From Escherichia coli O127:H6 str. E2348/69 (lineage in GTDB: Bacteria > Pseudomonadota > Gammaproteobacteria > Enterobacterales > Enterobacteriaceae): a stretch of 64,000 nucleotides of DNA. The DNA lies in NCBI RefSeq assembly GCF_000026545.1, contig NC_011601.1; one strand, written 5' to 3'. Numbering within the stretch: position 1 is the stretch's first letter; each line of letters begins with the position of its first letter. The position numbers were made by a program, and so were the translations under genes. Below the pieces are notes generated by a model, which was not told the DNA's origin, searched no databases, and was given only the letters and a program-made list of their open reading frames with translations. Of the stretch, positions 10,663 to 32,167 are shown piece after piece.

Positions 10663-10672
10663 AAAAAAAAGA

Positions 10673-15079: not shown

Positions 15080-17088
<2,009 letters not shown>

Positions 17089-17180: not shown

Positions 17181-17203
17181 GATTTTTTGAATGATAAAAT
17201 AAG
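17181..17203. promoter_or_regulatory. Candidate NagC operator, nagB-proximal
   Basis: AT-rich 23-mer gattttttgaatgataaaataag in the divergent nagB-nagE control region. NagC is known to bind two operators here and loop the DNA. The assignment rests on position and on similarity to the second box. Confidence 0.45.
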
Positions 17204-17244
17204 TTTTCTGGTTTAGCCAGTAAAAGGGAGTGATGATAACGATA

Positions 17245-17266
17245 TTTGGTGACAAAACTCACAAAA
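17245..17266. promoter_or_regulatory. CRP binding site between the nagB and nagE promoters
   Basis: tttGGTGAcaaaacTCACAaaa matches TGTGA-N6-TCACA at 9 of 10 core positions. Confidence 0.65.
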
Positions 17267-17275
17267 GACACGCGT

Positions 17276-17298
17276 TTAATTTGCGATACGAATTAAAT
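17276..17298. promoter_or_regulatory. Candidate NagC operator, nagE-proximal
   Basis: Near-palindrome TTTAATTTGCGATACGAATTAAA. Its centre is about 95 bp from the centre of the 17181..17203 box, with the CRP site between them. Confidence 0.55.
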
Positions 17299-17420
17299 TT
17301 TCACACACTCTGTAGCAGATGATCTAACAATCTGATTACAGAACATCGGCAGTACAATTTGCAGCAAAATAAAAATACGGCTTTAAACGAGCCAAATAGG
17401 GTTCTCGTAGGGGGAATAAG

Positions 17421-19367
17421 ATGAATATTTTAGGTTTTTTCCAGCGACTCGGTAGGGCGTTACAGCTCCCTATCGCGGTGCTGCCGGTGGCGGCGCTGTT
17501 GCTGCGATTCGGTCAGCCAGATTTACTTAACGTTGCGTTTATTGCCCAGGCGGGCGGTGCGATTTTTGATAACCTCGCATTAATCTTCGCCATCGGCGTG
17601 GCATCCAGCTGGTCGAAAGACAGCGCAGGTGCGGCGGCACTGGCGGGTGCGGTAGGTTACTTTGTGTTAACCAAAGCGATGGTGACCATCAACCCAGAAA
17701 TTAACATGGGTGTACTGGCGGGTATCATTACCGGTCTGGTTGGTGGCGCAGCCTATAACCGTTGGTCCGATATTAAACTGCCGGACTTCCTGAGCTTCTT
17801 CGGCGGCAAACGCTTTGTGCCGATCGCCACCGGCTTCTTCTGTCTGGTGCTGGCGGCCATTTTTGGTTACGTCTGGCCACCGGTACAGCACGCTATCCAT
17901 GCAGGCGGCGAGTGGATCGTTTCTGCGGGCGCGCTGGGTTCCGGTATCTTTGGTTTCATCAACCGTCTGCTGATCCCAACCGGTCTGCATCAGGTGCTGA
18001 ACACCATCGCCTGGTTCCAGATTGGTGAATTCACCAACGCGGCGGGAACGGTTTTCCACGGTGATATCAACCGCTTCTATGCCGGTGACGGCACCGCGGG
18101 GATGTTCATGTCCGGCTTCTTCCCGATTATGATGTTCGGTCTGCCGGGTGCGGCGCTGGCGATGTACTTCGCAGCACCGAAAGAGCGTCGTCCGATGGTT
18201 GGCGGTATGCTGCTTTCTGTTGCTGTTACTGCGTTCCTGACCGGTGTGACTGAGCCGCTGGAATTCCTGTTCATGTTCCTTGCGCCGCTGCTGTACCTCC
18301 TGCACGCACTGCTGACCGGTATCAGCCTGTTTGTGGCAACGCTGCTGGGTATCCATGCCGGCTTCTCTTTCTCTGCGGGGGCTATCGACTACGCGTTGAT
18401 GTATAACCTGCCGGCCGCCAGCCAGAACGTCTGGATGCTGCTGGTGATGGGTGTTGTCTTCTTCGCTATCTACTTCGTGGTGTTCAGTTTGGTTATCCGC
18501 ATGTTCAACCTGAAAACGCCGGGTCGTGAAGATAAAGAAGACGAGATCGTTACTGAAGAGGCTAACAGCAATACTGAAGAAGGTCTCAATCAACTGGCAA
18601 CCAACTATATTGCTGCGGTTGGCGGTACTGACAACCTGAAAGCCATTGACGCCTGTATTACTCGTCTGCGCCTTACCGTGGTTGACTCAGCTCGCGTCAA
18701 CGATGCGATGTGTAAACGTCTGGGTGCTTCTGGGGTAGTGAAACTGAACAAACAGACTATTCAGGTGATTGTTGGCGCGAAAGCAGAATCCATCGGCGAT
18801 GCGATGAAGAAAGTCGTTGCCCGTGGTCCGGTAGCCGCTGCGTCAGCTGAAGCAACTCCGGCAACTGCCGCGCCTGTAGCAAAACCGCAGGCTGTACCAA
18901 ACGCGGTATCTATCGCGGAGCTGGTATCGCCGATTACCGGGGATGTTGTGGCACTGGATCAGGTTCCTGACGAGGCATTCGCCAGCAAAGCGGTGGGTGA
19001 CGGTGTGGCGGTGAAACCGACGGATAAAATCGTCGTATCACCAGCCGCAGGGACAATCGTGAAAATCTTCAACACCAACCACGCGTTCTGCCTGGAAACC
19101 GAAAAAGGCGCGGAGATCGTCGTCCATATGGGTATCGACACTGTAGCGCTGGAAGGTAAAGGCTTTAAACGTCTGGTGGAAGAGGGCGCGCAGGTAAGCG
19201 CAGGGCAACCGATTCTGGAAATGGATCTGGATTACCTGAACGCTAACGCCCGTTCGATGATTAGCCCGGTGGTTTGCAGCAATATCGACGATTTCAGTGG
19301 CTTGATCATTAAAGCTCAGGGCCATGTTGTGGCGGGTCAAACACCGCTGTATGAAATCAAAAAGTAA
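17421..19367 (+). CDS. nagE: PTS N-acetylglucosamine-specific EIICBA component
   Basis: 648-aa ORF MNILGFFQRLGRALQLPIAVLPVAALLLRFGQPDLL with EIIC, EIIB (CITRLR) and EIIA domains. Recognised as NagE. Confidence 0.95.
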   Translation: MNILGFFQRLGRALQLPIAVLPVAALLLRFGQPDLLNVAFIAQAGGAIFDNLALIFAIGVASSWSKDSAGAAALAGAVGYFVLTKAMVTINPEINMGVLAGIITGLVGGAAYNRWSDIKLPDFLSFFGGKRFVPIATGFFCLVLAAIFGYVWPPVQHAIHAGGEWIVSAGALGSGIFGFINRLLIPTGLHQVLNTIAWFQIGEFTNAAGTVFHGDINRFYAGDGTAGMFMSGFFPIMMFGLPGAALAMYFAAPKERRPMVGGMLLSVAVTAFLTGVTEPLEFLFMFLAPLLYLLHALLTGISLFVATLLGIHAGFSFSAGAIDYALMYNLPAASQNVWMLLVMGVVFFAIYFVVFSLVIRMFNLKTPGREDKEDEIVTEEANSNTEEGLNQLATNYIAAVGGTDNLKAIDACITRLRLTVVDSARVNDAMCKRLGASGVVKLNKQTIQVIVGAKAESIGDAMKKVVARGPVAAASAEATPATAAPVAKPQAVPNAVSIAELVSPITGDVVALDQVPDEAFASKAVGDGVAVKPTDKIVVSPAAGTIVKIFNTNHAFCLETEKGAEIVVHMGIDTVALEGKGFKRLVEEGAQVSAGQPILEMDLDYLNANARSMISPVVCSNIDDFSGLIIKAQGHVVAGQTPLYEIKK

Positions 19368-19377
19368 TCTGCTTTAT

Positions 19378-19406
19378 GCCTGATGCGACGCGGCAGCGTC
19401 GCATCC
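19378..19406. repeat. REP-like palindromic unit after nagE
   Basis: gcctgatgcgacgcggcagcgtcgcatcc, with inverted repeat GATGCGACGC/GCGTCGCATC. Confidence 0.5.
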
Positions 19407-19412
19407 AACAAT

Positions 19413-19447
19413 AAAAAGCGGCAGGGATATTCTCTGCCGCTTTTTTT
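19413..19447. terminator. Bidirectional intrinsic terminator shared by nagE (+) and the island permease gene (-)
   Basis: aaaaaGCGGCAGggatattctCTGCCGCttttttt. A 7-bp GC stem has an A-run on the left and a 7-T run on the right. The permease stop is 9 nt further on. Confidence 0.75.
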
Positions 19448-19455
19448 GTCTGAGA

Positions 19456-20736
19456 TTACATTGGGAAGATAAAAACAGCGCCTGCACAAAGCGCCAGAAT
19501 GCGGATGAGATACATTGGTACAGAGAACACCCAGAATTCGGGAAGTTTGTATTTCCCCATTCCGAGGATCATGGCTGGCATTCCGTCAATAGGCATATAG
19601 CCGCCGTTCCAGCCTGAAATCACCACCGCAATCGCTGCAGCGGTCGGGTTAAGCCCAAGGCTGGTACAGGCGGCAATGGCGATGGGGGCAAAAATATAAA
19701 CAGACCCCATATTCGAACCCGTGAAGGTGGCGCAGGTACTGGTAAGCAAAGCAAAGGCGACAATAAATACAAATGGTGAGACGCCAGAACCGAGCACACC
19801 TGCAACGGCATCGCCAACCATCGCCGTAAAGCCGGTGCCCGCCAGTGCATCAGCTACACCGATCACCCCCGCCATCATTAAAATGACCGGCGCTCCCATA
19901 TGATCGCGAACTTCTTTAAAGTCCAGTACATCGATCATCAGAACAAACGCACCCGCAAGACCCGGAATAACGAAGGCGATATTTCCCAGAATGTTCATTA
20001 GCATCATGCCGATAACGCTGACAGCGAATGCGGCAATAGTGCAATATTCTTTCCAGGCAGGAAGGGCGTTAAACGTTTCCTCGCGTGCCGCCAGCGCATC
20101 CTCGGAAGCATCCGCAATGGGATGATCCGGAAGAAAACGGTAGGCAATAAGACTCCATGCGAGGAACGCCGCTGACATGATGAGATTCACCAGCGCAAAG
20201 CGCCCCATCGAAATCTCCTGATGAAAACCCGCGGTTTCGAGTACGGTCGCCGTAACGCCAAAGAGAAGCGCGAGATTGATAGGAAGAAGCGGGTGGTTGG
20301 TGGCAAATCCCAGGGGCATCATTAATTTCGATGTTGGTAGCTTTTTACTGTACGGAATGGTGGATACCAGCGACAGAATCAGCACGTAATAACCGGTCGC
20401 GCCGGTGCCTGCAAGACTGGCACCCAGCATAACAATGACTAACAACAGCCCGTAGCTGCGGTAACTGCCTTTATTGACCAGGCTTATCATCGCAGATTTA
20501 ACGTTGCTGATAAGCCGGGTTTTTTGTAGCGCTGCCATGACCACCATAAACCCTGCAATCATCACCACGCTTGGATTGACGAATCCGGCAAAAGCCTGTT
20601 GAACGGTCGAAAGTCCCGAGACAACCAGCAATAAACACGCAAGCAGTGGCGGTGCGCCAAATGGCATTTTGTCCGACATGATCAGCACGATCATCAGGAC
20701 CAGTATTCCTAATGCCAGGATCATTTCCATTGTCAT
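19456..20736 (-). CDS. Ion-transporter (IT) superfamily anion permease (ArsB/NhaD/SLC13-like), last gene of the island's leftward operon
   Basis: The track ORF 19456..20982 is trimmed to the ATG at 20736 (MTMEMILALGILVLMIVLIMSDK), which is preceded by AAAGGAGAGA. The extension would overlap the upstream gene. The 426-aa protein is hydrophobic throughout, with a central hydrophilic loop (PDHPIADASEDALAAREETFNALPAWKE) separating two halves. That layout is typical of IT-superfamily carboxylate/anion carriers. Family assignment is by composition and pattern only. Confidence 0.7.
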   Translation of the reverse strand: MTMEMILALGILVLMIVLIMSDKMPFGAPPLLACLLLVVSGLSTVQQAFAGFVNPSVVMIAGFMVVMAALQKTRLISNVKSAMISLVNKGSYRSYGLLLVIVMLGASLAGTGATGYYVLILSLVSTIPYSKKLPTSKLMMPLGFATNHPLLPINLALLFGVTATVLETAGFHQEISMGRFALVNLIMSAAFLAWSLIAYRFLPDHPIADASEDALAAREETFNALPAWKEYCTIAAFAVSVIGMMLMNILGNIAFVIPGLAGAFVLMIDVLDFKEVRDHMGAPVILMMAGVIGVADALAGTGFTAMVGDAVAGVLGSGVSPFVFIVAFALLTSTCATFTGSNMGSVYIFAPIAIAACTSLGLNPTAAAIAVVISGWNGGYMPIDGMPAMILGMGKYKLPEFWVFSVPMYLIRILALCAGAVFIFPM

Positions 20737-20749
20737 TTTTTCTCTCCTT

Positions 20750-21220
20750 TTAGGCTTCCAGCATGTCGCGCGGTACCTTAAAGACCGCTTTGCGTACTGA
20801 CGTAGCCGCGCCAATCGCGCACAGCGCCTGGTGAGGTTCCTCAGGCATAAAGACGGCGAAATCACCGGGGTGTAGAGTGATGGCGACACTGTTTTCAGGG
20901 GATGGGGCGATAAACAGATCGGGCTTACGTTCTTCATCGTTTTCGCGAGCGATGGGCCGCGTTCCCGCATTAATGCCCTCACAACCAGTAATCACCACCT
21001 GGATATCGGCCCACAGATGGTGATACTCCGTATGGCGGAGTTCGGCGGGTTGCGTGTCTGAAGTTCCCAGCGTGCAGAACCACCGACATCCTTCAGGTTG
21101 CCAGCGACCGTCCTCTCTGGCGGATAACGCCGATAACGAACACTCCGGGCACAGCAGAATATTTCTCACCCAGGCGGGAAGCCCCGCCAGCGACAAATGG
21201 TTGAGATTACCGATAATCAT
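20750..21220 (-). CDS. YhcH/YjgK/YiaL (DUF386) family protein, NanQ-like putative ulosonic-acid anomerase
   Basis: 156 aa. The N-terminus MIIGNLNHLSLAGLPAWVRNIL and the C-terminus GDFAVFMPEEPHQALCAIG...KAVFKVPRDMLEA parallel E. coli YhcH (MMMGEVQSLPSAGLHPAL ... GMFAVFMPGEPHKPGCVVG...KVVVKVKADLMA, from memory). An ATGA overlap with the upstream BNR gene indicates coupling. Confidence 0.75.
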   Translation of the reverse strand: MIIGNLNHLSLAGLPAWVRNILLCPECSLSALSAREDGRWQPEGCRWFCTLGTSDTQPAELRHTEYHHLWADIQVVITGCEGINAGTRPIARENDEERKPDLFIAPSPENSVAITLHPGDFAVFMPEEPHQALCAIGAATSVRKAVFKVPRDMLEA

Positions 21221-22386
21221 GATGCCTGCCCCTTAACCCACTCGGGGGAGATGCGCACGTACTTGATGGCCTGACGCCACCAGGTGTAAGCGATATGTAG
21301 CGTACCGTCCGGGCTTTGTTTGATGCTGGGGTAGGAGAACTCACGATTTAGCTTTTCCAGGGAATTGTTGGTCATGCAGTTGCCGTCGCCTTCATCGAGA
21401 TTGCGCCGCCACGGCCAGCTTTTCCCACCATCGGCAGAAATCGCTACCGTCATCGGCGCGCGTGGGGCCCCCCAGAAAGCGGAGCGTCCGACGGCTGTCG
21501 GTTCTTTGCGGCTGTCGTCGCCATCGTCGATTTCGTCATAAAGCGACGCGCGACGTTCTACTGCGCCTGCCGCACTCATCGCGTTGTACACCAGCGCCAG
21601 TTCGCCGCTGGCAAGCGTCGTTACCTGAATAGACGAATTGTTGTTGGGCAATTCGGTAGCTTGCGGCACCGACCAACTCTCGCCGTTGTCCACTGAATGG
21701 CTGATATAGATGTTGTCTGCCCAACGGCTGCGAAAGAGAGCAACCAACGTACCGTCGTGCAGCATTGTGATATTCATATGAACGCAGCCGAGACTTTGCG
21801 GCACCTCGACATCGCGCCATGAGTGACCACCGTCAGCGGAAATTTTCACTGCGCTGATATCATCATTGCCGACCCATTTTTCGCCGGGTTGGGTACGGCA
21901 ATAAAAGACGGGAAGCAGCCAGTTACCGTTATCAAGCACCGTGATCGGCTGGCGAATGAACGTGCCGGGTTTATCGAGCAGGGTGGCAATCTCGCCCCAG
22001 GTTTGCCCAAGGTCGTCAGACTTACGGTAGCGGACGATGGCCGTGTCCTGATTACCGGATATTTGTGCGGTCCATAGCAGCCACAGCACGTTATCCGGCG
22101 CGAGAAACAGCACCGGGTTTTGCTCTGAACGCGTGTCATCGTGGGAAAGTTTGACCGCATCGCTCCACTGCGTTCTGCCAGCGGGCAATCGTGATCCCCA
22201 GACAGAAATATCGGCAATACCTTCCTGTGTTCCCGCAAACCAGACGCACATTAATGCGCCATCCGGCATTGGCAGAATATTCGCCGCGTGGTTTTGCGGG
22301 CAGGACGAGGGCAGCATGGCGGTAAGCACATGCGAATCGTTTTCGGATGGACGGATGACGCCGTCACGAATAAGGGCTACAGACAT
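21217..22386 (-). CDS. BNR/Asp-box repeat beta-propeller protein, sialidase (exo-alpha-sialidase)-like, no signal peptide
   Basis: 389 aa with four S-x-D-x-G-x-(S/T)-W Asp boxes: SDDLGQTW (aa 123-130), SADGGHSW (183-190), SVDNGESW (231-238) and SADGGKSW (317-324). The N-terminus MSVALIRDGVIRPSEND has no hydrophobic signal sequence. GGAG Shine-Dalgarno before the ATG. Confidence 0.75.
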   Translation of the reverse strand: MSVALIRDGVIRPSENDSHVLTAMLPSSCPQNHAANILPMPDGALMCVWFAGTQEGIADISVWGSRLPAGRTQWSDAVKLSHDDTRSEQNPVLFLAPDNVLWLLWTAQISGNQDTAIVRYRKSDDLGQTWGEIATLLDKPGTFIRQPITVLDNGNWLLPVFYCRTQPGEKWVGNDDISAVKISADGGHSWRDVEVPQSLGCVHMNITMLHDGTLVALFRSRWADNIYISHSVDNGESWSVPQATELPNNNSSIQVTTLASGELALVYNAMSAAGAVERRASLYDEIDDGDDSRKEPTAVGRSAFWGAPRAPMTVAISADGGKSWPWRRNLDEGDGNCMTNNSLEKLNREFSYPSIKQSPDGTLHIAYTWWRQAIKYVRISPEWVKGQAS

Positions 22387-22421
22387 AGTTAGACTCCATC
22401 TTAAAGTTGGTAATAGATTTA

Positions 22422-23180
22422 TTAATGCGAGTGCGATTCATGCGTTTCGATCAATGTCGAAACTTTTTTATTTCTTCTTTCACGGATAATATTGAGTGTC
22501 TCAACACTTAATGAGAAAAATATCGCGAAGTAGAGATACTCTTTGGCAATATGAATGTTGAGACTATCGGCAACCAGCAATACACCGACAAACAATAAAA
22601 AGGTTAACGCCAGTATTTTTATTGACGGCGTGGCGTTAACGAAATCACCAATTGTTTTCGCCGCAAACATCATGACACCGACGGCAATCATTACGGCGGC
22701 AATCATGATAAATATATGCTGAGAAAGGCCGACGGCGGTGATCACCGAATCCAGGCTAAACACGATATCGAGCAGCATTATCTGTACAATGGCACCGCAC
22801 AACGACAGTTGCCGCGATCCGCTGCCATGTTCGTCTTCCTGCGCGGGCGACAGCTCTTCGCGTATCTCCTGTATCGCTTTATAAATCAGGAACAGCCCGC
22901 CCCCGAGCAGAATCAACGTGCGGAACGAAATCTCCAGCGTCAGCACGGTAAAAAGCGGCTGGGTAATATGTGAAAGCCACGCAATGGATATCAGCAATAA
23001 TATCCGCATAATCATCGCGCAGCTTAAACCCAGTTTACGCGCCATATTTTGTTGTGATAACGGAAGTTTTGCCACCACCAGTGAAAGAAAAATAATATTA
23101 TCCACCCCAAGAATAATTTCCAGAAAGGTGAGGGTAATTAAAGTGAGCCAGATATCTGGCTGCATAAACCACAAAAACAT
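22422..23180 (-). CDS. TerC-family integral membrane protein (resembles the TerC domain of YoaE/YegH, without a CBS/CorC tail)
   Basis: 252 aa. MFLWFMQPDIWLTLITLTFLEIILGVDNIIFLSLVVAKLP closely parallels the YoaE N-terminus (...[27 protein letters not shown], from memory). The second DxxxS motif region is LLDIVFSLDSVITAVG. Confidence 0.75.
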   Translation of the reverse strand: MFLWFMQPDIWLTLITLTFLEIILGVDNIIFLSLVVAKLPLSQQNMARKLGLSCAMIMRILLLISIAWLSHITQPLFTVLTLEISFRTLILLGGGLFLIYKAIQEIREELSPAQEDEHGSGSRQLSLCGAIVQIMLLDIVFSLDSVITAVGLSQHIFIMIAAVMIAVGVMMFAAKTIGDFVNATPSIKILALTFLLFVGVLLVADSLNIHIAKEYLYFAIFFSLSVETLNIIRERRNKKVSTLIETHESHSH

Positions 23181-23239
23181 GGGGTAATCCTTTATTCTCT
23201 TTATCTAAACTTTATAGCGGGCTGGATAATAGAGTTAAT

Positions 23240-24127
23240 TTAATTAATGTTATAATGACGAATAATTTGTTGAATCTCGCTGATCTGTTCAGGCGTGAAA
23301 TTAACCGCGTAGCGGCTATCACCAACATCATGCCCCATAAGCTGCAACGCTTTTTTCACCGCAGCCGGGGAGAATGCTACTTTATAAAGATCGGTACGCA
23401 GGCCCGTTACACTCTCCTGTGCTTCATAAGACCCTTCAATATCACCGGCATGGAAGCGAGACCAGATGGCATTGATTTCTCGCGGCGCGATGTTGGCGAG
23501 CCCAGAGATACAGGCTGAACATCCCTCGACAAACCCTTTATGGATCAGCGAATCCGGGCCGTTGAGCACATTAAAGCCGTCAATGTCGCGCACCGCATCG
23601 AGAAAACCCTTCAGGCTTTCGTCGCTTCCGGCGCTGTCTTTAATCCCAATGATATTGGGGTGCGACGCCAGAGCACGCGCGGTTTCTGGCTGGATCGTAT
23701 TGCCAGTGCGGGCCGGGATGTTATAGAGAAACATCGGAATGCTCAGTGCGTCGGCAATTGCGCTGTAATGCGCAATCAACTCTTCCTGTTTCAGCGGTAC
23801 GAAGTAAGGGGCAATGACCGACACGGCATCTACGCCAAGTTTTTCAATCTGCTGACCCAGACGAATCGTTTCGCGCGTAGAGATCTCGCCAATGTGTGCC
23901 ACGACCGGCGCACGACCAGCCACTTCATCCACGCAGGTTTGCGTAACGCTGAGCTTCTCCTGTTCATTCAACACAAAAAATTCGCCGTTGGTGCCGCCGC
24001 AAAAAATCGCGTTACCCGCTTCCAGTTGACGATTCACCTGCACTTTTAACGCCGGGATATTCAGACTGCCGGTCGCGGTAAACGGGGTGACGATAGCGGT
24101 TAATACACCTTCAATGGTTTTCGGCAT
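23240..24127 (-). CDS. DHDPS/N-acetylneuraminate-lyase family class I (Schiff-base) pyruvate aldolase
   Basis: 295 aa with the family signatures GGTNGEF (GxxGE), LYNIP (catalytic Tyr) and IIGIKDSAGS (Schiff-base Lys). It starts 3 nt after the upstream ADH stop. Confidence 0.8.
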   Translation of the reverse strand: MPKTIEGVLTAIVTPFTATGSLNIPALKVQVNRQLEAGNAIFCGGTNGEFFVLNEQEKLSVTQTCVDEVAGRAPVVAHIGEISTRETIRLGQQIEKLGVDAVSVIAPYFVPLKQEELIAHYSAIADALSIPMFLYNIPARTGNTIQPETARALASHPNIIGIKDSAGSDESLKGFLDAVRDIDGFNVLNGPDSLIHKGFVEGCSACISGLANIAPREINAIWSRFHAGDIEGSYEAQESVTGLRTDLYKVAFSPAAVKKALQLMGHDVGDSRYAVNFTPEQISEIQQIIRHYNIN

Positions 24128-24130
24128 GAT

Positions 24131-25288
24131 TTATTCCTTAAATTGATGTTGCGGAAACAGTGTTTGGTAAATGGCCTGTACGTCCTGTAGATCAAGCTGG
24201 CACGGCACATTGTTCATAAGGCGCTTCACGTTCAGTGCCGCCTCGCTAAGAGAGGCAATATCCTCTGGCGGTACGCCGAGATCTGCGAGATTGTTGGGTA
24301 GCTTGAGTTGATTGACTAATGCCTGTAACCAGGTCACCAGGGCATGAGATTTTTCTTCCGCGCTCAGGGCGGTTTCCGCATCGGGAATGCAATCCCAGAC
24401 CCGGGCAAATTTCTCGACCGCCCAGGGGCGAACAAACGCCATGCACGGCGCCAGCAAGATGGCATTCGCGACGCCATGCGGCAGATGATATTTGCCACCT
24501 AACGGGTAGGAGAGCGCATGAACGAGATGCGTGCCCGCATGGGTTATCGCTACGCCGCCATAGTAAGACGCCCACAGCATTTCCAGTTTTGCGCGCAGAT
24601 CCTGAGGATCGTTCACGGCGGGTTGAATGTGCCGGAAAAGTTTACTTAACCCAGTCAGCGCCGCGTTATCGCTGACCGGATTTGCCACGGTCGCGGTAAA
24701 ACACTCCAGTAAGTGGCAAAGAGCATCAATGCCCGTGGACGCCGCAATATGCGCAGGCATGCTGGTGGTCAGTTCCGGGAAAAGCGCCACATAGTCTGGT
24801 AACAGCATCTGGGAAATAATACCCACCTTCGTGCTTTGCTCAGGGATTGCCAGAATCGCATTCGGCGTGGCTTCTGAGCCGGTTCCGGCGGTTGTAGGAA
24901 TCAACCATGATTGCACCCGCTGAGTTGGTTTTTCACCCGCAAGCAGCGCATCCAGCCCCGGAGATTGTGGATGGCAAAGCACCGATAGCAGCTTTGCCAC
25001 ATCCAACACGCTGCCACCGCCGATCCCGACCACCACATCAAAAGAGGCATCGCCAAGGACATCCATTAGCTGGCGCACATCATGATGCGTGGGCTCTGCG
25101 GGCACATTATCGATAACGTTAACCTGCGGGCAGTGCTGTTCCAGTAAGGCGCGAATCTGCTGCACACCGTCGAGCTGCGCAATATTACGGTCAGTGACCA
25201 GCAGCATTTTTCTGATGTCGGGTAAGAGCGACGTCAGGGAAGGGATAGCGCCTGCGCCGCTCAGTATCGTGCTATTGATAATTACCAC
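24131..25288 (-). CDS. Iron-containing (group III) alcohol dehydrogenase family oxidoreductase, first gene of the leftward operon
   Basis: 385 aa with a GTG start preceded by AGAGAGGT. GIGGGSVLDVAKL is the NAD(P)-binding motif. His-rich metal motifs are IDALCHLLE and HAGTHLVHALSYPLGGKYHLPHG. Confidence 0.8.
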   Translation of the reverse strand: MVIINSTILSGAGAIPSLTSLLPDIRKMLLVTDRNIAQLDGVQQIRALLEQHCPQVNVIDNVPAEPTHHDVRQLMDVLGDASFDVVVGIGGGSVLDVAKLLSVLCHPQSPGLDALLAGEKPTQRVQSWLIPTTAGTGSEATPNAILAIPEQSTKVGIISQMLLPDYVALFPELTTSMPAHIAASTGIDALCHLLECFTATVANPVSDNAALTGLSKLFRHIQPAVNDPQDLRAKLEMLWASYYGGVAITHAGTHLVHALSYPLGGKYHLPHGVANAILLAPCMAFVRPWAVEKFARVWDCIPDAETALSAEEKSHALVTWLQALVNQLKLPNNLADLGVPPEDIASLSEAALNVKRLMNNVPCQLDLQDVQAIYQTLFPQHQFKE

Positions 25289-25306
25289 AAATAACCTCTC
25301 TTCTGG

Positions 25307-25322
25307 TGATTGAATTCAATCA
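25307..25322. promoter_or_regulatory. Perfect 16-bp palindrome, candidate operator (O1) for the island DeoR regulator
   Basis: TGATTGAATTCAATCA lies 19 nt upstream of the ADH GTG start, within the likely 5' UTR of the leftward operon. Confidence 0.5.
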
Positions 25323-25412
25323 TTCAAAATGCCGTAGCCTACGTAACATGGTCTAATTTTATAATTTATTCGAGTGATTAATAACTTGAGCTTGCTCACA
25401 TTTAATCAATTG

Positions 25413-25428
25413 TGATTGAATATAATCA
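25413..25428. promoter_or_regulatory. Imperfect palindrome with the same half-sites, candidate operator (O2) overlapping a TATAAT hexamer for the rightward operon
   Basis: TGATTGAATATAATCA has the same outer half-sites TGATT/AATCA as O1. The TATAAT at 25421..25426 lies inside it. Its centre is 106 bp from the O1 centre. A third GTGATTAAT copy sits at 25374..25382. Confidence 0.45.
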
Positions 25429-25454
25429 TTATTATCATAAAACAACCTGGAGTG

Positions 25455-26693
25455 ATGATGGAAAAGGGAATCACTAAGCCGAGCATTCTCGTCGTTGCCG
25501 ATGATTTCACGGGAGCCAACGACGCGGGGGTAAGCCTGGCGCAGGTGGGGCATACAGTTGATGTGGCCTTTGAAATGCCTTATCACGGTGATGCCAGCGT
25601 ATGGGTGATTAACAGCGACAGCCGGGCGATGGATCCTAAGCTGGCGGCGATGAAAATAACCTCGCTGATGAGTCATCTCCCTCTGGCGAATAACCCGCCG
25701 CTCGTGATTAAAAAGATAGATTCCACGCTTCGAGGCAATATCGGCGCAGAAATTGAAGCCCTGATGAAGGCATGCGGTATAACGGGCGCAGTGATTGCCC
25801 CCGCATTTCCTCAGGCGGGAAGGACCACAGTGGCCGGTGAGTGTTGGGTAAACGGTGTGCGGATAACGGAAACCGAGTTTGCCAGCGATCCGAAAACCCC
25901 GGTATTGAGCGCCCGAATTGCGGACATCATCCGGTTGCAGACGGCCATTCCATGCCAGCCCGTTACGGTTTCTCAGCTCAGCCATTTGTCTTATGAGCAA
26001 CCGTGGATTGGCGTGATAGATGCGCAGACGGACAGCGACCTGGATCGCATCGCTGCCGCTGTGATGCAGGCTAAACAACCGCTACTGCTGGTCGGCTCCG
26101 CTGGTATTTGTGATGCCGTTGCCCGGCGCTCCGCGATTATGCCGCCACCCACCGTGCTGGCCATTATTGGTTCAATGAGCGAAATCGCTCAACGGCAGAT
26201 CGCCACACTGCATTCACACCCACGTATCACACAGATATACGTCGATGTTGAACACATTCTGGCAGGCAATGCCAGTGACTATGACGCGCGTATTGTGCAG
26301 GCCTTGCAGAAAGGCGACCACTGCATTGTCCACACCTGTAACGATTCTGTAGCAAGGCATCAGATCGACACCCTTTGCCAGCGTTGGCAGATGAGTCGCG
26401 CTGCACTTGGGGAAAAAATTTGTCGGTTTCTTGGCGAACTTACCCGGCAAGTTCTGCTTCGCACAATGCCCGATGCGCTTTATCTCTCTGGTGGCGATGT
26501 CGCAATGGCAACAGCCAGTGCGTTAGGCGCGACCGGGTTTCGTATTACGGGGAAGGTGGCGCAATGCGTTCCATATGGTCACTTTCTGGGCGGCGTCTGG
26601 TCCCGTTCGGTGATGACGAAAGCCGGTGGGTTTGGCGATGAGACCACGTTGCATCAGGTTCTGAATTTTATCGAGGAGAAGCGTAGTGAATAA
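25455..26693 (+). CDS. DUF1537-family four-carbon acid-sugar kinase (DtnK/OtnK-like)
   Basis: The track ORF starts at a TTG (25416) within the operator region. ATG 25455 or 25458 follows GGAG at 25448..25451. The N-terminus ILVVADDFTGANDAG is the hallmark ADDFTGA motif of this kinase family. The product is about 412 aa. Confidence 0.75.
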   Translation: MMEKGITKPSILVVADDFTGANDAGVSLAQVGHTVDVAFEMPYHGDASVWVINSDSRAMDPKLAAMKITSLMSHLPLANNPPLVIKKIDSTLRGNIGAEIEALMKACGITGAVIAPAFPQAGRTTVAGECWVNGVRITETEFASDPKTPVLSARIADIIRLQTAIPCQPVTVSQLSHLSYEQPWIGVIDAQTDSDLDRIAAAVMQAKQPLLLVGSAGICDAVARRSAIMPPPTVLAIIGSMSEIAQRQIATLHSHPRITQIYVDVEHILAGNASDYDARIVQALQKGDHCIVHTCNDSVARHQIDTLCQRWQMSRAALGEKICRFLGELTRQVLLRTMPDALYLSGGDVAMATASALGATGFRITGKVAQCVPYGHFLGGVWSRSVMTKAGGFGDETTLHQVLNFIEEKRSE

Positions 26694-27672
26694 CATTATT
26701 GCGGTAACGATGGGCGATCCGGCGGGTATTGGCCCGGAGATCATTATTAAATCCCTGAGCGAAGCCGGGCTTGCTGGTACCCCGGTGGTGGTGGTGGGCT
26801 GTGTGCGCACGCTGCGACGTATTATGGCGATGAATATCACGCCGCAGGCAGAGTTACGCGTCATTCAAAAGGTGTGCGACGCCCACTTTGCTCCCGGCGT
26901 GATTAACGTGATGGATGAGCCTCTGGCTAACCCCGATGCGCTGACACCTGGTGTGGTACAGGCTGCGGCAGGCGATTTAGCGTATCGCTGTATCAAACGT
27001 GCAACGGCCCTGGCCTTATCAGGCGAGGTGAAAGCCATAGCCACTGCGCCGTTGAATAAAGAAGCGCTGCATCTTGGCGGGCATAACTATCCGGGGCATA
27101 CGGAATTGCTGGCCCATCTTACCGGCAGCAAAGAGTACGCGATGGTGCTCTATACCGATAAGCTCAAGGTTATCCATATTTCGACTCACATCTCACTGCG
27201 TAAATTCCTGGATACTTTGAATGGTGAAAGGGTCAAAACGGTTATTCGAGTTGCGAACCACTTCCTGAAACGTGTCGGCATTGAGCGTCCGCGTATTGCC
27301 GTGGCGGGTGTAAATCCACATGCAGGGGAACACGGTTTATTCGGCACTGAGGAAATCGAGATTATCGCACCTGCGATTGAAGCAATGCAGGCCGAAGATA
27401 TTGATGTTACTGGCCCGTGCCCGCCAGATACCGTGTTCATGCAGTGCCATGAAGGGCTATTCGATATGGTGGTGGCTATGTACCATGATCAGGGGCATAT
27501 CCCTTTAAAACTGCTTGGATTTTATGATGGGGTGAATATCACCGCCGGGTTGCCATTTATTCGCACTTCTGCCGACCACGGCACCGCGTTTGATATTGCC
27601 TGGACAGGAAAAGCCAAGTCTGAGAGCATGGCAGTTTCCATCCAGTTAGCAATGCAGATTTCGCGAGAATAA
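26686..27672 (+). CDS. PdxA-family NAD-dependent dehydrogenase (PdxA2-type, 4-phospho-D-threonate/4-hydroxythreonine-4-phosphate dehydrogenase family)
   Basis: 328 aa. The GTG start overlaps the kinase stop by 8 nt and is preceded by GAGGAG. Visible motifs are [15 protein letters not shown], the HTELLA and NPHAGE metal-ligand regions, and YHDQGHIP. Confidence 0.8.
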
Positions 27673-27673
27673 A

Positions 27674-28435
27674 ATGAAGGGATATAACCGGTTAGAGCAG
27701 ATCATGGATTACCTGAAAAGCCATAATCTGGTCACCGTTGATGAGCTGGTGGCGGTAACCAATGCGTCGCCGGCTACGATTCGTCGAGACCTGATAAAAC
27801 TCGATGAGCAGGGTGTTATCAGCCGTACACACGGCGGTGTGACCCTCAACCGGTTTATTCCTACCCAACCGACTACCCATGAGAAAATGCAGCGCAGCCT
27901 GGCGGAAAAACATGCTATCGCCAGCGCAGCGGCGTCAATGGTCAAAGCGGGGGATTCCGTCGTCCTTGATGCCGGTACGACAATGATTGAACTTGCGCGG
28001 CAGATTACACATTTACCGCTTCGCGTGATCACCAGCGACCTGCATATCGCGCTTTTTTTGGCTGAATTCAAGCAAATTGAAGTGACGATTATCGGCGGAC
28101 GTATCGACGACTCCAGCCAGTCCTGCATTGGCGAACATGGTCGTAAATTGCTGCAAAATACCTGGCCGGACGTGGCATTTTTAAGCTGTAACAGCTGGGA
28201 TCTTGAAAAGGGTATTACAGCACCCACGGAAGAGAAAGCCGCACTAAAACGCGATCTTATCGCGCATGCTTCGCGCAAAATTCTCCTGGCTGACAGCTCA
28301 AAATACGGTTCATGGTCGCTGTTTAATATCGCGCATCTTAATGAACTGACAGAGATTATTACGGATAGTCAGCTTGATGGGCAGACGCGTAGAACGCTTG
28401 CGTCCTTGTCGACGCGTTTAATCATAGCCGACTAA
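27674..28435 (+). CDS. DeoR-family transcriptional regulator
   Basis: 253 aa with an N-terminal HTH ([50 protein letters not shown]) and a C-terminal DeoR sugar-phosphate sensor domain. It starts 1 nt after the PdxA-family stop. Confidence 0.85.
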
Positions 28436-28654
28436 TCTATGACTCTGCGGCCAGCTCATCCGGCAATTTAATAAATGCGTCAGGCTGGCGACGTTTGGCC
28501 TTACGTTTCCAGCGCGAGGATCTGCTGGCAGTAGCGCAGAAAACGCCCCAATATCTTACGCAAAACCATTTTTTCGCTAACTAACAGTTGTCAGCCTGTC
28601 CCGCTTATAAGATCATACGCCGTTATACGTTGTTTACGCTTTGAGGAATCCACG

Positions 28655-30319
28655 ATGAGTGAGGCAGAAGCCCGCCCGACTAACTTTATCCGTCAGATCA
28701 TCGATGAAGATCTGGCCAGTGGTAAGCACACCACAGTACACACCCGTTTCCCGCCGGAGCCGAATGGCTATCTGCATATTGGCCATGCGAAATCTATCTG
28801 CCTGAACTTCGGGATCGCCCAGGACTATAAAGGCCAGTGCAACCTGCGTTTCGACGACACTAACCCGGTAAAAGAAGATATCGAGTATGTCGATTCGATC
28901 AAAAACGACGTAGAGTGGTTAGGTTTTCACTGGTCTGGTAACGTCCGTTACTCCTCCGATTATTTTGATCAGCTCCACGCCTATGCGATCGAACTGATCA
29001 ATAAAGGCCTGGCGTACGTTGATGAACTGACGCCGGAACAGATCCGCGAATACCGCGGCACCTTGACGCAGCCGGGTAAAAACAGCCCGTACCGCGATCG
29101 CAGCGTTGAAGAGAACCTGGCGCTGTTCGAGAAAATGCGTACCGGCGGTTTTGAAGAAGGTAAAGCCTGCCTGCGTGCGAAGATCGACATGGCTTCGCCG
29201 TTTATCGTGATGCGCGATCCGGTGCTGTACCGCATTAAGTTTGCTGAACACCACCAGACTGGCAACAAGTGGTGCATCTACCCGATGTACGACTTCACCC
29301 ACTGCATCAGCGATGCGCTGGAAGGTATTACGCACTCTCTGTGTACGCTTGAGTTCCAGGACAACCGCCGTCTGTACGACTGGGTACTGGACAATATCAC
29401 CATTCCTGTTCACCCGCGCCAGTACGAATTCTCGCGCCTGAATCTGGAATACACTGTGATGTCCAAGCGTAAGCTGAACCTGCTGGTGACCGATAAGCAC
29501 GTTGAAGGCTGGGATGACCCACGTATGCCGACCATTTCTGGTCTGCGTCGTCGTGGTTACACTGCGGCTTCTATTCGTGAGTTCTGCAAACGCATTGGTG
29601 TGACCAAGCAGGACAACACCATTGAGATGGCGTCACTGGAATCCTGCATCCGTGAAGATCTCAACGAAAATGCGCCGCGCGCAATGGCGGTTATCGATCC
29701 GGTGAAACTGGTTATCGAAAACTACCAGGGCGAAGGCGAAATGGTTACCATGCCGAACCATCCGAATAAACCGGAAATGGGCAGCCGCCAGGTGCCATTT
29801 AGCGGTGAGATTTGGATCGATCGCGCCGATTTCCGCGAAGAAGCTAACAAGCAGTACAAACGTCTGGTGCTGGGTAAAGAAGTGCGTCTGCGTAATGCTT
29901 ACGTCATTAAGGCAGAACGCGTCGAGAAAGATGCCGAAGGCAATATCACCACCATCTTCTGTACTTATGACGCCGACACCTTAAGCAAAGATCCGGCAGA
30001 TGGTCGTAAAGTCAAAGGTGTTATTCACTGGGTGAGCGCGGCACATGCGCTGCCGGTTGAAATCCGTTTGTATGACCGTCTGTTCAGCGTGCCGAACCCT
30101 GGTGCTGCGGATGATTTCCTGTCGGTGATTAACCCGGAATCGCTGGTGATCAAACAGGGCTTTGCTGAACCGTCGCTGAAAGATGCGGTTGCGGGTAAAG
30201 CATTCCAGTTTGAGCGTGAAGGTTACTTCTGCCTCGACAGCCGCCATTCTACGGCGGAAAAACCGGTATTTAACCGCACCGTTGGGCTGCGTGATACCTG
30301 GGCGAAAGTAGGCGAGTAA
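28655..30319 (+). CDS. glnS: Glutaminyl-tRNA synthetase
   Basis: 554-aa [50 protein letters not shown] with the HIGH and VMSKR class I signatures. Recognised as GlnS. Confidence 0.96.
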
Positions 30320-30329
30320 GTTTACGTTG

Positions 30330-30359
30330 TCGGATAGAGCGTTTACGCCGCATCCGGCA
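30330..30359. repeat. REP-like unit after glnS
   Basis: tcggatagagcgtttacgccgcatccggca resembles the REP consensus. Confidence 0.45.
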
Positions 30360-30380
30360 AGAAATATGCAAATTATCCCA

Positions 30381-30406
30381 AACGCCGCGCTCTGCGGCGT
30401 TTTTTT
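30381..30406 (+). terminator. Intrinsic terminator of glnS
   Basis: AACGCCGC-gctct-GCGGCGTT followed by TTTTTT. Confidence 0.75.
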
Positions 30407-30628
30407 CTGCTTTTCTTCGCGAATTAATTCCGCTTCGCAATTTATCCATAAAATAAATTTAAAATCACAAAACATAATTAAATAAAATGTAACCGCTTTC
30501 ATCTTGCTGGAATTTCACGTTTTTATTCTTCTGCAAGCCTTTCAACTGCAAACTTAAGCCTTGTAACAAAAATCATCAAAATATGTGCGGTTGCTCATGT
30601 TCTTACATTCTGGTTACAGAAAGAGATT

Positions 30629-30651
30629 GATAATTCGCGTCGCGAAAAATA
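30629..30651. promoter_or_regulatory. Candidate NagC operator upstream of chiP
   Basis: tgatAATTCGCGTCGCGAAaaat is a near-palindrome, similar in layout to the nagE-proximal box (AATTTGCG...CGAATT). chiP is reported to be NagC-repressed. Confidence 0.4.
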
Positions 30652-30741
30652 GTCTGTTCCTGTAGTCAGCGAGACTTTTCTCAACGCTACTTTTTTAATT
30701 TTTATTTTTTTCGCTGTTCACCTTTGGTGCAGCAATTTATA

Positions 30742-30752
30742 CGTCAAAGAGG
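30742..30752 (+). promoter_or_regulatory. ChiX (MicM) sRNA pairing site over the chiP Shine-Dalgarno
   Basis: CGTCAAAGAGG, 9 nt upstream of the chiP ATG, is complementary to the CCUCUUUGACG segment of ChiX as I remember that sRNA. Confidence 0.55.
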
Positions 30753-30760
30753 ATTAACCC

Positions 30761-32167
30761 ATGCGTGCGTTTAGTGGCAAACGTAGTACGCTGGCGCTGG
30801 CTATCGCCGGTGTTACAGCTATGTCGGGCTTTATGGCAATTCCGGAGGCTCGCGCCGAAGGATTCATCGACGATTCAACCTTAACCGGCGGTATCTATTA
30901 CTGGCAGCGTGAACGCGACCGTAAAGATGTTACCGACGGCGATAAATACAAAACTAACCTTTCTCACTCCACCTGGAACGCCAACCTCGATTTTCAGTCT
31001 GGTTATGCTGCTGATATGTTCGGCCTTGATATTGCCGCGTTTACGGCGATTGAAATGGCGGAAAACGGCGACAGCTCTCACCCGAACGAAATCGCGTTTT
31101 CAAAAAGTAATAAAGCCTATGACGAAGACTGGTCCGGCGATAAAAGCGGTATAAGCCTGTATAAAGCAGCGGCCAAATTTAAATACGGTCCGGTTTGGGC
31201 GAGGGCAGGTTATATTCAGCCAACCGGTCAGACGCTGTTAGTGCCACACTGGAGCTTTATGCCGGGTACTTATCAGGGGGCGGAGGCCGGGGCGAATTTT
31301 GATTACGGCGATGCTGGTGCGTTGAGTTTCTCCTACATGTGGACCAACGAATACAAAGCACCGTGGCATCTGGAAATGGATGAGTTTTATCAGAATGATA
31401 AAACCACCAAAGTTGATTATCTACACTCCCTTGGGGCGAAGTACGACTTCAAAAATAACTTCGTACTGGAAGCGGCGTTTGGTCAGGCCGAAGGGTATAT
31501 CGATCAATATTTTGCCAAAGCAAGCTACAAATTTGATATCGCCGGTAGCCCGTTAACCACCAGCTACCAGTTCTATGGTACGCGCGATAAAGTTGACGAT
31601 CGCAGCGTCAACGATCTTTATGACGGCACCGCCTGGCTGCAGGCGTTGACCTTTGGTTACCGGGCGGCTGACGTAGTGGATTTGCGCCTCGAAGGTACCT
31701 GGGTTAAGGCTGACGGTCAGCAGGGATACTTCCTGCAACGTATGACTCCAACCTACGCTTCCTCGAACGGTCGCCTGGATATCTGGTGGGATAACCGTTC
31801 TGACTTCAACGCCAACGGCGAAAAAGCGGTCTTCTTCGGTGCGATGTATGACCTGAAAAACTGGAATCTTCCAGGCTTCGCCATCGGCGCTTCCTACGTT
31901 TACGCATGGGATGCTAAACCTGCGACCTGGCAGAGCAATCCGGATGCGTACTACGACAAAAACCGGACTATTGAAGAGTCTGCCTACAGCCTGGATGCGG
32001 TGTACACCATTCAGGACGGTCGCGCCAAAGGCACGATGTTCAAACTGCACTTCACCGAATATGACAACCACTCCGACATCCCAAGCTGGGGCGGCGGTTA
32101 CGGTAACATCTTCCAGGATGAGCGCGACGTGAAATTTATGGTAATCGCACCATTCACCATCTTCTGA
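30761..32167 (+). CDS. chiP: Chitooligosaccharide-specific outer-membrane porin ChiP (YbfM)
   Basis: 468-aa ORF with signal peptide [32 protein letters not shown] and a C-terminal aromatic residue (...VIAPFTIF). OprD-like family. Recognised as ChiP. Confidence 0.93.

Follow-up and report, generated by a model that had tools for sequence, protein, structure and literature searches.

A non-mobile nine-gene cluster between nagE and glnS of Escherichia coli E2348/69, a probable regulon ending in the D-threonate route

A gene cluster fixed between two core genes

Between the core genes nagE and glnS, the chromosome of Escherichia coli O127:H6 strain E2348/69 carries a nine-gene metabolic island, which we analyzed within a stretch of 64,000 nucleotides (contig NC_011601.1, referred to as the window). 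This segment is a fixed chromosomal catabolic gene cluster rather than a mobile element, and very probably constitutes a single non-mobile regulon that ends in the D-threonate route, consisting of the D-threonate kinase DtnK and the D-threonate 4-phosphate dehydrogenase PdxA2. Our best overall explanation, to which we give an even chance, is that this fixed regulon would convert a seven-carbon (C7) ulosaric acid, most likely 3-deoxy-D-lyxo-heptulosarate (Dha), to D-threonate and channel it into that route.

The existence of the island is already known, as a 2026 study tabulated it as "GR 6 nagE..glnS" of the avian pathogenic E. coli (APEC) strain BEN2908, with its open reading frames (ORFs) listed as uncharacterised (PMC12928451). 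Beyond that study, our search of the literature returned nothing relevant on the cluster. The GR 6 entry comes without a junction analysis, a distribution count or a pathway proposal; new here are the junction scar and the mechanism it points to, the distribution count, an age estimate, conserved operators, synteny across proteobacterial classes, and a testable pathway hypothesis.

The 13-kb stretch around the island is 100% identical to E. coli E2348/69 (NZ_CP059840.2). The original prediction, made from the sequence of the window, held that nagE and glnS are immediate neighbours in K-12 and 9.3 kb apart here, and this is borne out by a distance of 9,287 bp in the window vs. 202 bp in the K-12-like strain NBRC 3301, O157, BL21, and REL606. 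It also described a six-gene leftward and a three-gene rightward operon, and the RefSeq annotation, our own ORF list and hidden Markov model (HMM) scans all agree on nine intact genes in this divergent arrangement. For the rightward operon, predicted to span 25455-28435, the end stands and the start does not, because two ATGs adjoin at this point and RefSeq begins dtnK at the second of them (25458). Intergenic gaps in the leftward operon range from a 4-bp overlap to 59 bp, dtnK and pdxA2 overlap by 8 bp, pdxA2 and deoR are 1 bp apart, and the non-coding DNA left by the nine genes amounts to 88, 169, and 219 bp.

The D-threonate module and its accompanying enzymes

A catabolic pathway for D-threonate made up of DtnK, a member of the DUF1537 kinase family, and PdxA2 is known through PMC10971088. 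The island DtnK scores 533.4 bits on the equivalog model NF047819 (cutoff 450) and contains SBD_N and NBD_C domains, with the DUF1537 structures 4xfm and 4xgj as its closest solved relatives (E = 8e-95). PdxA2 scores 680.3 bits on the equivalog model NF002891 (cutoff 583). As both proteins pass their equivalog cutoffs, the pathway is predicted to end with the conversion of D-threonate to 4-phospho-D-threonate and then to dihydroxyacetone phosphate (DHAP) and CO2, and judged by these curated models the pair qualifies as a bona fide D-threonate module. A pathway of this composition is said to have been reported by Zhang and co-workers in PNAS in 2016. The island pair resembles it in the overlap of the two genes and in the DeoR gene that lies next to them, and differs in belonging to a larger conserved regulon, by which D-threonate would be made available from a bigger sugar acid.

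A different role has been suggested for such a pair. ORFs 6 and 7 of GR 6 were linked to the synthesis of vitamin B6 (pyridoxal phosphate, PLP), for which Thiaville et al. (2016) was cited as the source of a DUF1537/PdxA2 role (PMC12928451), and PdxA2 does reach 370 bits on the PdxA model. By this account the two enzymes would serve PLP synthesis or the detoxification of 4-hydroxy-L-threonine rather than carbon catabolism. We consider it very improbable: both proteins lie above cutoffs that are specific to D-threonate, they appear to share their regulation with genes for a transporter, a lyase and a reductase, and E. coli already has pdxA and pdxB.

None of the remaining six pathway and transport proteins reaches an equivalog cutoff. 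The lyase belongs to the DHDPS/NAL superfamily of class I pyruvate lyases, as shown by its motifs GTNGEF, YNIPARTG and GIKDSA with the catalytic Tyr and the Schiff-base Lys retained, and YNIP and GIKDSA are conserved in 68-70 orthologues. It is neither DapA (189.9 bits on TIGR00674 vs. a cutoff of 206.15, and GTNGEF in place of GTTGE) nor NanA (144.9 vs. 281 bits on NF003164 and 110.6 vs. 382 bits on TIGR00683). Its best families below cutoff are DapA, the DHDPS-type 2,4-dihydroxyhept-2-ene-1,7-dioate aldolase, NanA and KdgD, three of which act on C6 or C7 dicarboxylates. The Arg in YNIPARTG (Lys in Pseudomonas) is found in 68 of 70 orthologues and occupies the position of R138 in DapA and L142 in NanA of E. 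coli. In DapA, aspartate semialdehyde (a C4 acid-aldehyde) has its carboxylate bound by R138, and the presence of a counterpart of this residue here suggests that the lyase substrate also has a distal carboxylate.

The iron-containing alcohol dehydrogenase (Fe-ADH) belongs to a family that reduces aldehydes. Below cutoff, lactaldehyde reductase and 4-hydroxybutyrate dehydrogenase are among its best-matching families; the latter, itself an Fe-ADH, interconverts succinic semialdehyde and 4-hydroxybutyrate, the deoxy equivalent of the reduction proposed as step 5 below. The YhcH protein is not NanQ (91.5 bits on NF040884 vs. a cutoff of 160) and is placed by TIGR00022 (97.3 bits, cutoff 45.5) in the broader YhcH/YjgK/YiaL family.

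The BNR protein has no signal peptide and contains four Asp-boxes (S-x-D-x-G-x-x-W). Its AlphaFold2 model (pLDDT 84, pTM 0.88) agrees with the sequence in giving a six-bladed beta-propeller with Asp-box repeats, as in GH33, and the top Foldseek matches of the model are GH33 sialidases (E = 3e-15, TM 0.71, 11-16% identity). A sequence search against the PDB gave no match, and a profile search gave matches to solved sialidases at the level of the Asp-boxes only. As for transport, the DASS permease of the E. coli form and the TctABC system of the Propionivibrio cluster are from di-/tricarboxylate families, and clusters elsewhere have an SSF symporter, MFS or ABC transporters.

Conservation of the cluster as one probable regulon

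A scan with the BNR protein, run on one genome per species, kept 80 loci, and the nine island proteins were then tabulated against these. In ~60 Enterobacterales species, the genes for BNR, YhcH, the DHDPS-family lyase and Fe-ADH stand head-to-head with dtnK, pdxA2 and deoR, so that the DeoR gene is conserved together with the cluster. These species include the Klebsiella oxytoca group, Kluyvera, Enterobacter, Leclercia, Kosakonia, Phytobacter, Pantoea, Erwinia, Dickeya, and ~15 Pectobacterium species. The form with TerC and DASS is that of E. coli, Klebsiella, Kluyvera, and Pseudocitrobacter. In the commoner form, present in most homologous clusters, an SSF symporter takes the slot of TerC and a short-chain dehydrogenase (SDR) replaces DASS.

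Beyond the Enterobacterales, homologs of BNR, the DHDPS-family lyase, Fe-ADH, the DUF1537 kinase and PdxA remain linked across Alpha-, Beta-, and Gamma-proteobacteria, in other gene orders and with other regulators and transporters. The Pseudomonas cluster (41-64% identity) has an MFS transporter, a 2-hydroxyacid dehydrogenase and an SDR; among the more distant homologs (26-58% identity), the Propionivibrio cluster has a TctABC transporter and again TerC, and that of a Rhizobiales genome has a NitT-type ABC transporter, an SDR and an IclR regulator.

Two near-identical 19-nt palindromes (25306-25324 and 25412-25430), 106 bp apart and one by each promoter, lie in the 169 bp between the divergent operons. 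Their sequence is TGATTGAAT(T/A)(C/T)AATCA, in full GTGATTGAAT-TC/AT-AATCATT. They are retained as TGATT-N6-AATCA, 104-124 bp apart, in ~60 Enterobacterales loci from Klebsiella to Pectobacterium, and we regard them as candidate DeoR operators. Taken with the paired operators, the conserved synteny makes a good case for the two operons encoding a single pathway with a common regulator, and both operons are presumably repressed by the DeoR-family protein encoded at the end of the cluster.

The two operons could also be unrelated neighbours, i.e., a self-contained D-threonate operon (dtnK-pdxA2-deoR) beside a separate operon that handles a sialic-acid-like sugar and feeds nothing into the D-threonate route. 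Among the nine proteins, only DtnK and PdxA2 have curated functional assignments, and a dtnK-pdxA2 pair without the other cluster genes has reportedly been described in Salmonella by Zhang, Thiaville and their co-workers (2016). This reading is quite unlikely in our estimation, as the linkage of BNR, lyase and Fe-ADH with the kinase and PdxA survives rearrangement in three proteobacterial classes, and in Pseudomonas and Azorhizobium the genes for lyase, Fe-ADH, kinase and PdxA form a row on one strand. Further, matching operators stand at both promoters, and the rightward operon has no transporter of its own.

A proposed pathway from a C7 ulosaric acid to D-threonate

Based on the enzyme families described above, we propose the following route for the single regulon. 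The DASS permease would import the substrate (step 1), the cytoplasmic sialidase-fold protein would free the ulosaric acid (step 2), and the NanQ-like YhcH protein would assist its anomerisation or ring opening (step 3). The DHDPS-family lyase would then carry out a retro-aldol cleavage to pyruvate and the C4 acid-aldehyde D-threuronate (step 4), which Fe-ADH would reduce to D-threonate at the expense of NAD(P)H (step 5). DtnK would phosphorylate D-threonate to 4-phospho-D-threonate (step 6), and PdxA2 would convert the latter to DHAP and CO2 by oxidative decarboxylation (step 7). In sum, substrate and ATP would yield pyruvate, DHAP and CO2, and the route would be redox-neutral because the PdxA2 step makes up for the NAD(P)H that Fe-ADH consumes. 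Steps 6 and 7 are predicted from curated equivalog models, and steps 1-5, like the identity of the substrate, from the families and the gene context.

The combination of the lyase and Fe-ADH families points to a C7 2-keto-3-deoxy diacid that is cleaved to pyruvate and a C4 acid-aldehyde, which is in turn reduced to a 2,3,4-trihydroxybutanoate. Whether the input is indeed a C7 ulosaric acid cleaved in this manner we judge to be evenly balanced. According to a stereochemistry derived by hand, retro-aldol cleavage of a C7 diacid of D-lyxo configuration would give a D-threo C4 acid-aldehyde and, on reduction, D-threonate, the isomer that gives DtnK its name and to which the kinase model is specific.

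Dha is a rare 'seven-carbon sialic acid analogue' of the pectin rhamnogalacturonan II (RG-II). The hosts of the cluster are mostly plant-associated or pectinolytic bacteria (Pectobacterium, Dickeya, Erwinia, Pantoea, Kosakonia, and rhizobia). Gut Bacteroides cleave Dha from RG-II by GH143 (PMC6811678), and a 2026 preprint notes that, for several RG-II sugars which B. thetaiotaomicron secretes, the pathways in other gut microbes await confirmation. No report of Dha catabolism or threuronate metabolism was found in the searchable literature. We name Dha as the specific substrate tentatively, at distinctly less than even likelihood.

The same logic could serve another substrate, either a monocarboxylic 2-keto-3-deoxy-heptonate or other ulosonic acid (bacterial or host-derived), which would be processed via D-threose oxidised to D-threonate, or another C7 diacid. 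In its commonest variant, the cluster encodes an SSF symporter, a type also seen among sialic-acid transporters, along with an SDR that might act as a sugar 1-dehydrogenase, and the trio of BNR, NanQ-like protein and lyase does not by itself specify a diacid. On the other hand, the variant of E. coli, Klebsiella and Kluyvera is without an SDR, yet it is under purifying selection; Fe-ADH does not oxidise aldehydes to acids; and the DapA-type Arg together with the DASS and TctABC transporters points to a second carboxylate. We consider another substrate unlikely, if less so than two unrelated modules.

Several observations weigh against the proposed Dha route. DtnK is only 43-47% identical to its orthologues in Pectobacterium, Dickeya and Erwinia, though it passes the equivalog model. 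In a weak profile alignment to NanB, R219 of the BNR protein lies opposite an Arg and its invariant H203 opposite a Glu, and the BNR protein may thus not be a hydrolase. (This Glu of NanB we take to be the catalytic one.) A cytoplasmic glycosidase also fits poorly with DASS and TctABC, since such carriers normally take up small acids and not glycosides. The SDR found with the SSF symporter in the commonest variant would be superfluous in the scheme, and TerC has no role in it and is left unexplained. Dha is a very minor plant sugar, and we have assumed that gut E. coli of phylogroup B2 encounter it in free form.

Other candidate substrates were considered and rejected by their expected products or by model scores. 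Kdo would yield D-arabinose and not a C4 unit, KDN or N-acetylneuraminic acid (Neu5Ac) would yield hexose products, and C6 diacids of the glucarate type would yield a C3 unit. D-apiose/apionate routes were set aside as the OiaK model gave 29 bits only.

Absence of mobility functions

The original prediction found no integrase, transposase, insertion sequence end, tRNA attachment site or flanking direct repeat, and dedicated searches gave the same result. Family and HMM scans of the nine ORFs detected no integrase or transposase, all nine being of metabolic, transport or regulatory families, and PHROGs showed no phage-type integration or structural proteins. The nearest tRNA gene is at 10749, 8.7 kb off the island. 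A repeat search of the window found no direct or inverted repeats flanking the island; a 16-nt direct repeat at the left junction was dismissed as chance, its second copy being located within deoR. The only pseudogene in the island is a lysR remnant (see below). Similarly, the composition resembles the flanks as predicted by eye, with a GC content of 52.2% vs. 51.8% in the rest of the window, and a dinucleotide distance of 37 that lies at the top of, but still inside, the range of 10-37 for equally long pieces of the window. In all 1,048 carrier genomes the cluster is present in one copy that is chromosomal and never on a plasmid, and every inspected copy lies between nagE and glnS. The segment is thus free of the features expected of an integrative island or mobile element, be it a mobility gene or its remnant, a tRNA site with repeats, foreign composition or variable location. 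A plasmid search found no close vehicle for the E. coli version.

For a degraded integrative element whose integrase and att sites have eroded, one might point to a phage-type integrase ~0.5 kb past the end of the homologous cluster in Pseudomonas sp. EpS/L25 (L081:13146-14546), and to the occurrence of the cluster on Pantoea megaplasmids. The non-coding DNA of the E. coli island leaves little room for such a history, as the last of its three intervals holds the lysR remnant and no remnant of an integrase. Given also the single chromosomal copy per carrier, the constant location of the inspected copies, and the lack of repeats, tRNA site and integration proteins described above, we find the probability of such an origin close to negligible.

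In Pseudomonas sp. EpS/L25, the integrase is on the DeoR side, and in Pseudomonas the cluster may lie at the margin of an integrative island. Large Pantoea plasmids (P. ananatis and P. allii; L030 and L040) carry the SSF-type cluster, ~70% identical in nucleotide sequence to the E. coli version; clusters of this type, mainly on these megaplasmids, were the only ones returned by the plasmid search. Six tRNA genes (Gln, Met, Gln, Gln, Leu, Met) on the minus strand at 10156-10749 of the window are unrelated to the island.

Junctions and a proposed mechanism of insertion

The junctions were defined by comparison with empty sites, including those of three island-free strains with nearly identical flanks (1105, STEC299, and ST2747); in 1105 and STEC299, the NagE and GlnS proteins are identical to those of E2348/69. 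The empty allele reads ...GCCGCTTTTTTTTT-CATCAATCAT-CCCCATAATC...CTAACTAACAG..., and the island allele reads ...GCCGCTTTTTTT, the left breakpoint, GTCTGAG, the island, GAAAACG-CCCC, the right breakpoint, and AATATC...CTAACTAACAG. On the left, island-free alleles part from the island allele after GCCGCTTTTTTT, and on the right they are identical to it from CTAACTAACAG on. The ~28 bp that follow CCCC (28546-28549) are shared with Escherichia sp. MOD1-EC7003 (L007) and are only ~50% like island-free alleles. An attempt to extend the right-hand homology to the empty site via CCCCAATATC... gave ~50% identity only, and this part was kept as a junction zone. The foreign DNA extends from ~19448 to 28548-28576 (~9.1 kb).

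The original prediction took the REP (repetitive extragenic palindromic) sequence of nagE and a bidirectional terminator as the left edge of the island. Both are present, but they are resident DNA of nagE because island-free strains have both: the hairpin (19413-19427/19431-19445) has the same sequence in ST2747, and that of 1105 differs by one loop base. At the right edge, which was predicted to run into the promoter region of glnS, a promoter-like site does lie in sequence common with island-free strains, but the 219 bp also hold the lysR remnant. (The promoter and terminator scan performed at chance level and was used only for placing this site.) The island lies between the nagE terminator and the -35 of glnS, which is left intact.

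Close copies of the cluster were found in bacterium G50 (L008; 88% nucleotide identity) and in Pseudocitrobacter (L009; 86%). Their homology to the window starts at 19438, within a T-run (CGCTTTT...), and in G50 extends to 28499. In G50, an intact LysR gene (288 aa, convergent) comes after deoR, with an aldehyde dehydrogenase gene beyond it. The lysR remnant of the island consists of two pieces of this gene, i.e., 28509-28548 (nt 180-223 of the G50 gene) and 28443-28512 (nt 794-863), which join at a CTGG microhomology. It has lost ~570 bp internally, its 5' end is cut by the island junction, and its outer end abuts the CCCC common with the empty site. An identical scar is present in the copy of MOD1-EC7003.

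We propose that part of a larger enterobacterial locus entered the nagE-glnS spacer, downstream of the nagE terminator and ahead of the glnS promoter, by illegitimate, microhomology-mediated recombination, replacing ~12-45 bp of the spacer and involving no mobile element. The lysR remnant, the microhomologies at the junctions (4-7 bp vs. empty sites, with no direct or att-like repeats) and the loss of target bases argue for such recombination rather than site-specific integration, a mechanism that we infer from the junctions.

The spacer itself varies in E. coli. It is 267 bp long in some strains owing to an additional REP, and the island-free strains 600055 and MLI104K2 (L004:2160-2440 and L006:2160-2440) show such a REP-like extra unit after nagE. 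For the 25 bp upstream of the glnS -35, there are at least two highly dissimilar sequences, a K-12 type and an O157 type. These versions and the extra REP indicate that the nagE-glnS spacer is hypervariable even in island-free strains. Separately, a segment of ~1 kb with glnS promoter and 5' sequence is present in ~80 records of E. coli plasmids, e.g., NZ_CP196102.1 at 91012-92020, which is ~96% identical to ~28587-29595 of the window.

Distribution, age, and evolutionary polarity

A query with the island only was matched in 1,048 of 5,426 complete E. coli genomes (~19%), with 1,047 of the copies near full length and almost all ~98.3-98.7% identical to E2348/69. A synthetic empty-site query matched 4,375 genomes with an empty site, none of which has flanks identical to those of E2348/69 at 99% or more. 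The carriers that we could recognise by strain belong to phylogroup B2, e.g., sequence type (ST) 131, UM146, NC101, APEC O2:K1:H7, and E2348/69. GR 6 was found to be complete in APEC O1, IMT5155, RS218, IHE3034, 78-Pyelo, CFT073, and LF82 (PMC12928451). Beyond E. coli, MOD1-EC7003 has the island at the same site and with the same junctions; it is the only Escherichia species representative among the 80 loci kept.

Purifying selection acts on each of the nine genes (dN/dS 0.03-0.20). Relative to MOD1-EC7003, dS is 0.09-0.37 for eight of the island genes, 0.20 for nagE and 0.21 for glnS. As the dS of the island is about that of its flanks, the insertion would date from around the time when these Escherichia lineages separated. 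These figures bear out the original prediction of an old, strain-variable metabolic module, and they do not agree with an island that is universal in E. coli and was lost from the K-12 lineage only. The flanks of B2 strains are nearer to K-12 and O157 than to MOD1-EC7003 right up to both junctions; judged by these comparisons, the flanks follow the species tree and the island does not. Two histories are possible, namely ancient presence followed by loss in non-B2 lineages, or an old polymorphism or early transfer, after which recombination removed the linked flanks.

The former would make the island ancestral in E. coli and the K-12 state derived. It is favored by MOD1-EC7003, whose junctions are identical and whose flanks are farther from B2 and K-12 than these two are from each other, and by the match of island and flank dS. 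However, the empty allele holds 12-45 bp of spacer (TTCATCAATCAT...) that are absent from the island allele and that a simple deletion cannot yield, so that the island allele appears to be the derived one, and the lysR fragment in the island allele is as expected of a derived state. The single Escherichia representative also speaks against ancestral presence, and recombination in the flanks can erase history. In Salmonella, nagE and glnS are presumably adjacent. On balance, loss from all non-B2 lineages has in our view somewhat better than a one-in-three chance.

A mosaic transporter gene and TerC

The DASS gene differs in history from the rest of the island. It is 72.8% identical to that of MOD1-EC7003 in nucleotide sequence (dS 1.55) and 84.5% identical to that of Pseudocitrobacter (98% at the amino acid level), and the rest of the island is 93-95% identical to MOD1-EC7003. 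Between MOD1-EC7003 and G50, identity of the DASS genes is 97%. The divergent patch, with its start at ~19480-19520 and its end near 20640, suggests an allelic replacement within the island after its insertion. The distant Propionivibrio cluster likewise has a TerC gene linked to it (L076:12385-13122). A search for Rfam families in 17000-31000 found no RNA family, and thus no riboswitch ahead of TerC. Table 1 lists the features of the island and its flanks.

Table 1. Features of the nagE-glnS interval of E. coli E2348/69 (positions in the window)
Feature	Coordinates	Strand	Basis
nagE, left flank core gene	17421..19367	+	RefSeq; protein identical in island-free 1105, STEC299
nagE REP-like palindrome and bidirectional terminator hairpin, resident DNA	19376..19447		Inverted repeat I6
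Left junction, within terminator T-run	19438..19448		CGCTTTT microhomology with donor-like loci
SLC13/DASS (CitMHS) permease, predicted di-/tricarboxylate importer, mosaic allele	19456..20736	-	Family scans
YhcH/YjgK/YiaL (DUF386) protein, NanQ-like, predicted anomerase/ring-opening enzyme	20750..21220	-	TIGR00022 97.3
BNR_2/sialidase-fold six-bladed propeller, cytoplasmic, predicted ulosonic/ulosaric acid glycosidase	21217..22386	-	PF13088 3.5e-65
TerC-family membrane protein	22422..23180	-	PF03741 4e-46
DHDPS/NAL-family class I pyruvate lyase	23240..24127	-	PF00701 3.5e-61
Iron-containing (group III) alcohol dehydrogenase (Fe-ADH), predicted acid-aldehyde reductase	24131..25288	-	Family scans
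Divergent control region, two operator-like palindromes	25289..25457		Repeat family D5
dtnK, D-threonate kinase (DUF1537 family)	25458..26693	+	NF047819 equivalog
pdxA2, D-threonate 4-phosphate dehydrogenase	26686..27672	+	NF002891 equivalog
DeoR/GlpR-family regulator, presumed repressor of both operons	27674..28435	+	PF00455, PF08220
lysR pseudogene remnant, two pieces, donor-derived	28443..28548	-	Match to intact LysR gene of bacterium G50 (L008)
Right junction zone	28549..28577		CCCC microhomology at 28546-28549
glnS promoter-like site and glnS, right flank	28588-28616; 28655-30319	+	RefSeq, promoter scan

Relation to known systems and implications

The proposed route is similar in logic to the GarL/GarR/GarK system for glucarate and galactarate in E. 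coli, in which a 2-keto-3-deoxy diacid is also split into pyruvate and an acid-aldehyde that is reduced to a hydroxy-acid and phosphorylated. The likeness is in logic only, as the island route would be one carbon longer (C7 vs. C6) and would need an extra decarboxylation by PdxA2, and its enzymes are from unrelated families (DHDPS-family class I lyase, Fe-ADH, and DUF1537 kinase). With the nan system the island shares proteins of the sialidase fold, the YhcH/NanQ family and the NanA superfamily, as well as the SSF symporter of most homologous clusters. Unlike that system, it has no NanK or NanE, its lyase and YhcH protein fall below the NanA and NanQ cutoffs, a DapA-type Arg replaces L142 of NanA, and its sialidase-like protein is cytoplasmic.

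Propeller glycosidases acting on 2-keto-3-deoxy acid sugars are known from both GH33 and GH143, the latter represented by the N-terminal domain of BT1020 in B. thetaiotaomicron. The fold of the BNR protein is nearest to GH33; it looks six-bladed, whereas GH143 is five-fold (PMC6811678). The comparison with GH33 is one of fold, given the low identity to solved sialidases and the lack of a secretion signal in the island protein. As a genomic feature, the island is comparable to GR 19, GR 21, etc., which are likewise small metabolic insertions between core genes without mobility genes and common to extraintestinal pathogenic (ExPEC) and adherent-invasive E. coli (AIEC) (PMC12928451).

The island is in itself ordinary, being one more small, strain-variable metabolic insertion. 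It is also a clean example of a 9-kb cluster fixed between core genes by what appears to be illegitimate recombination, with a datable pseudogene scar and no mobile machinery. We know of no described natural source of D-threonate. It is possible, though clearly less than an even bet, that the island and its homologs in pectinolytic and plant-associated proteobacteria encode the first described catabolic pathway for Dha, a natural source of D-threonate, and the basis of a cross-feeding niche in which B2 strains live on sugars released by Bacteroides. If this is true, it would give a function to nine genes of the recognised B2 carriers (ST131, ST95-type strains, CFT073, LF82, and E2348/69) and of many plant pathogens, fill a gap in the turnover of RG-II pectin and explain where D-threonate comes from. 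It would also define a diet-linked niche for B2 E. coli, including ExPEC, AIEC and the enteropathogenic E. coli (EPEC) strain E2348/69.

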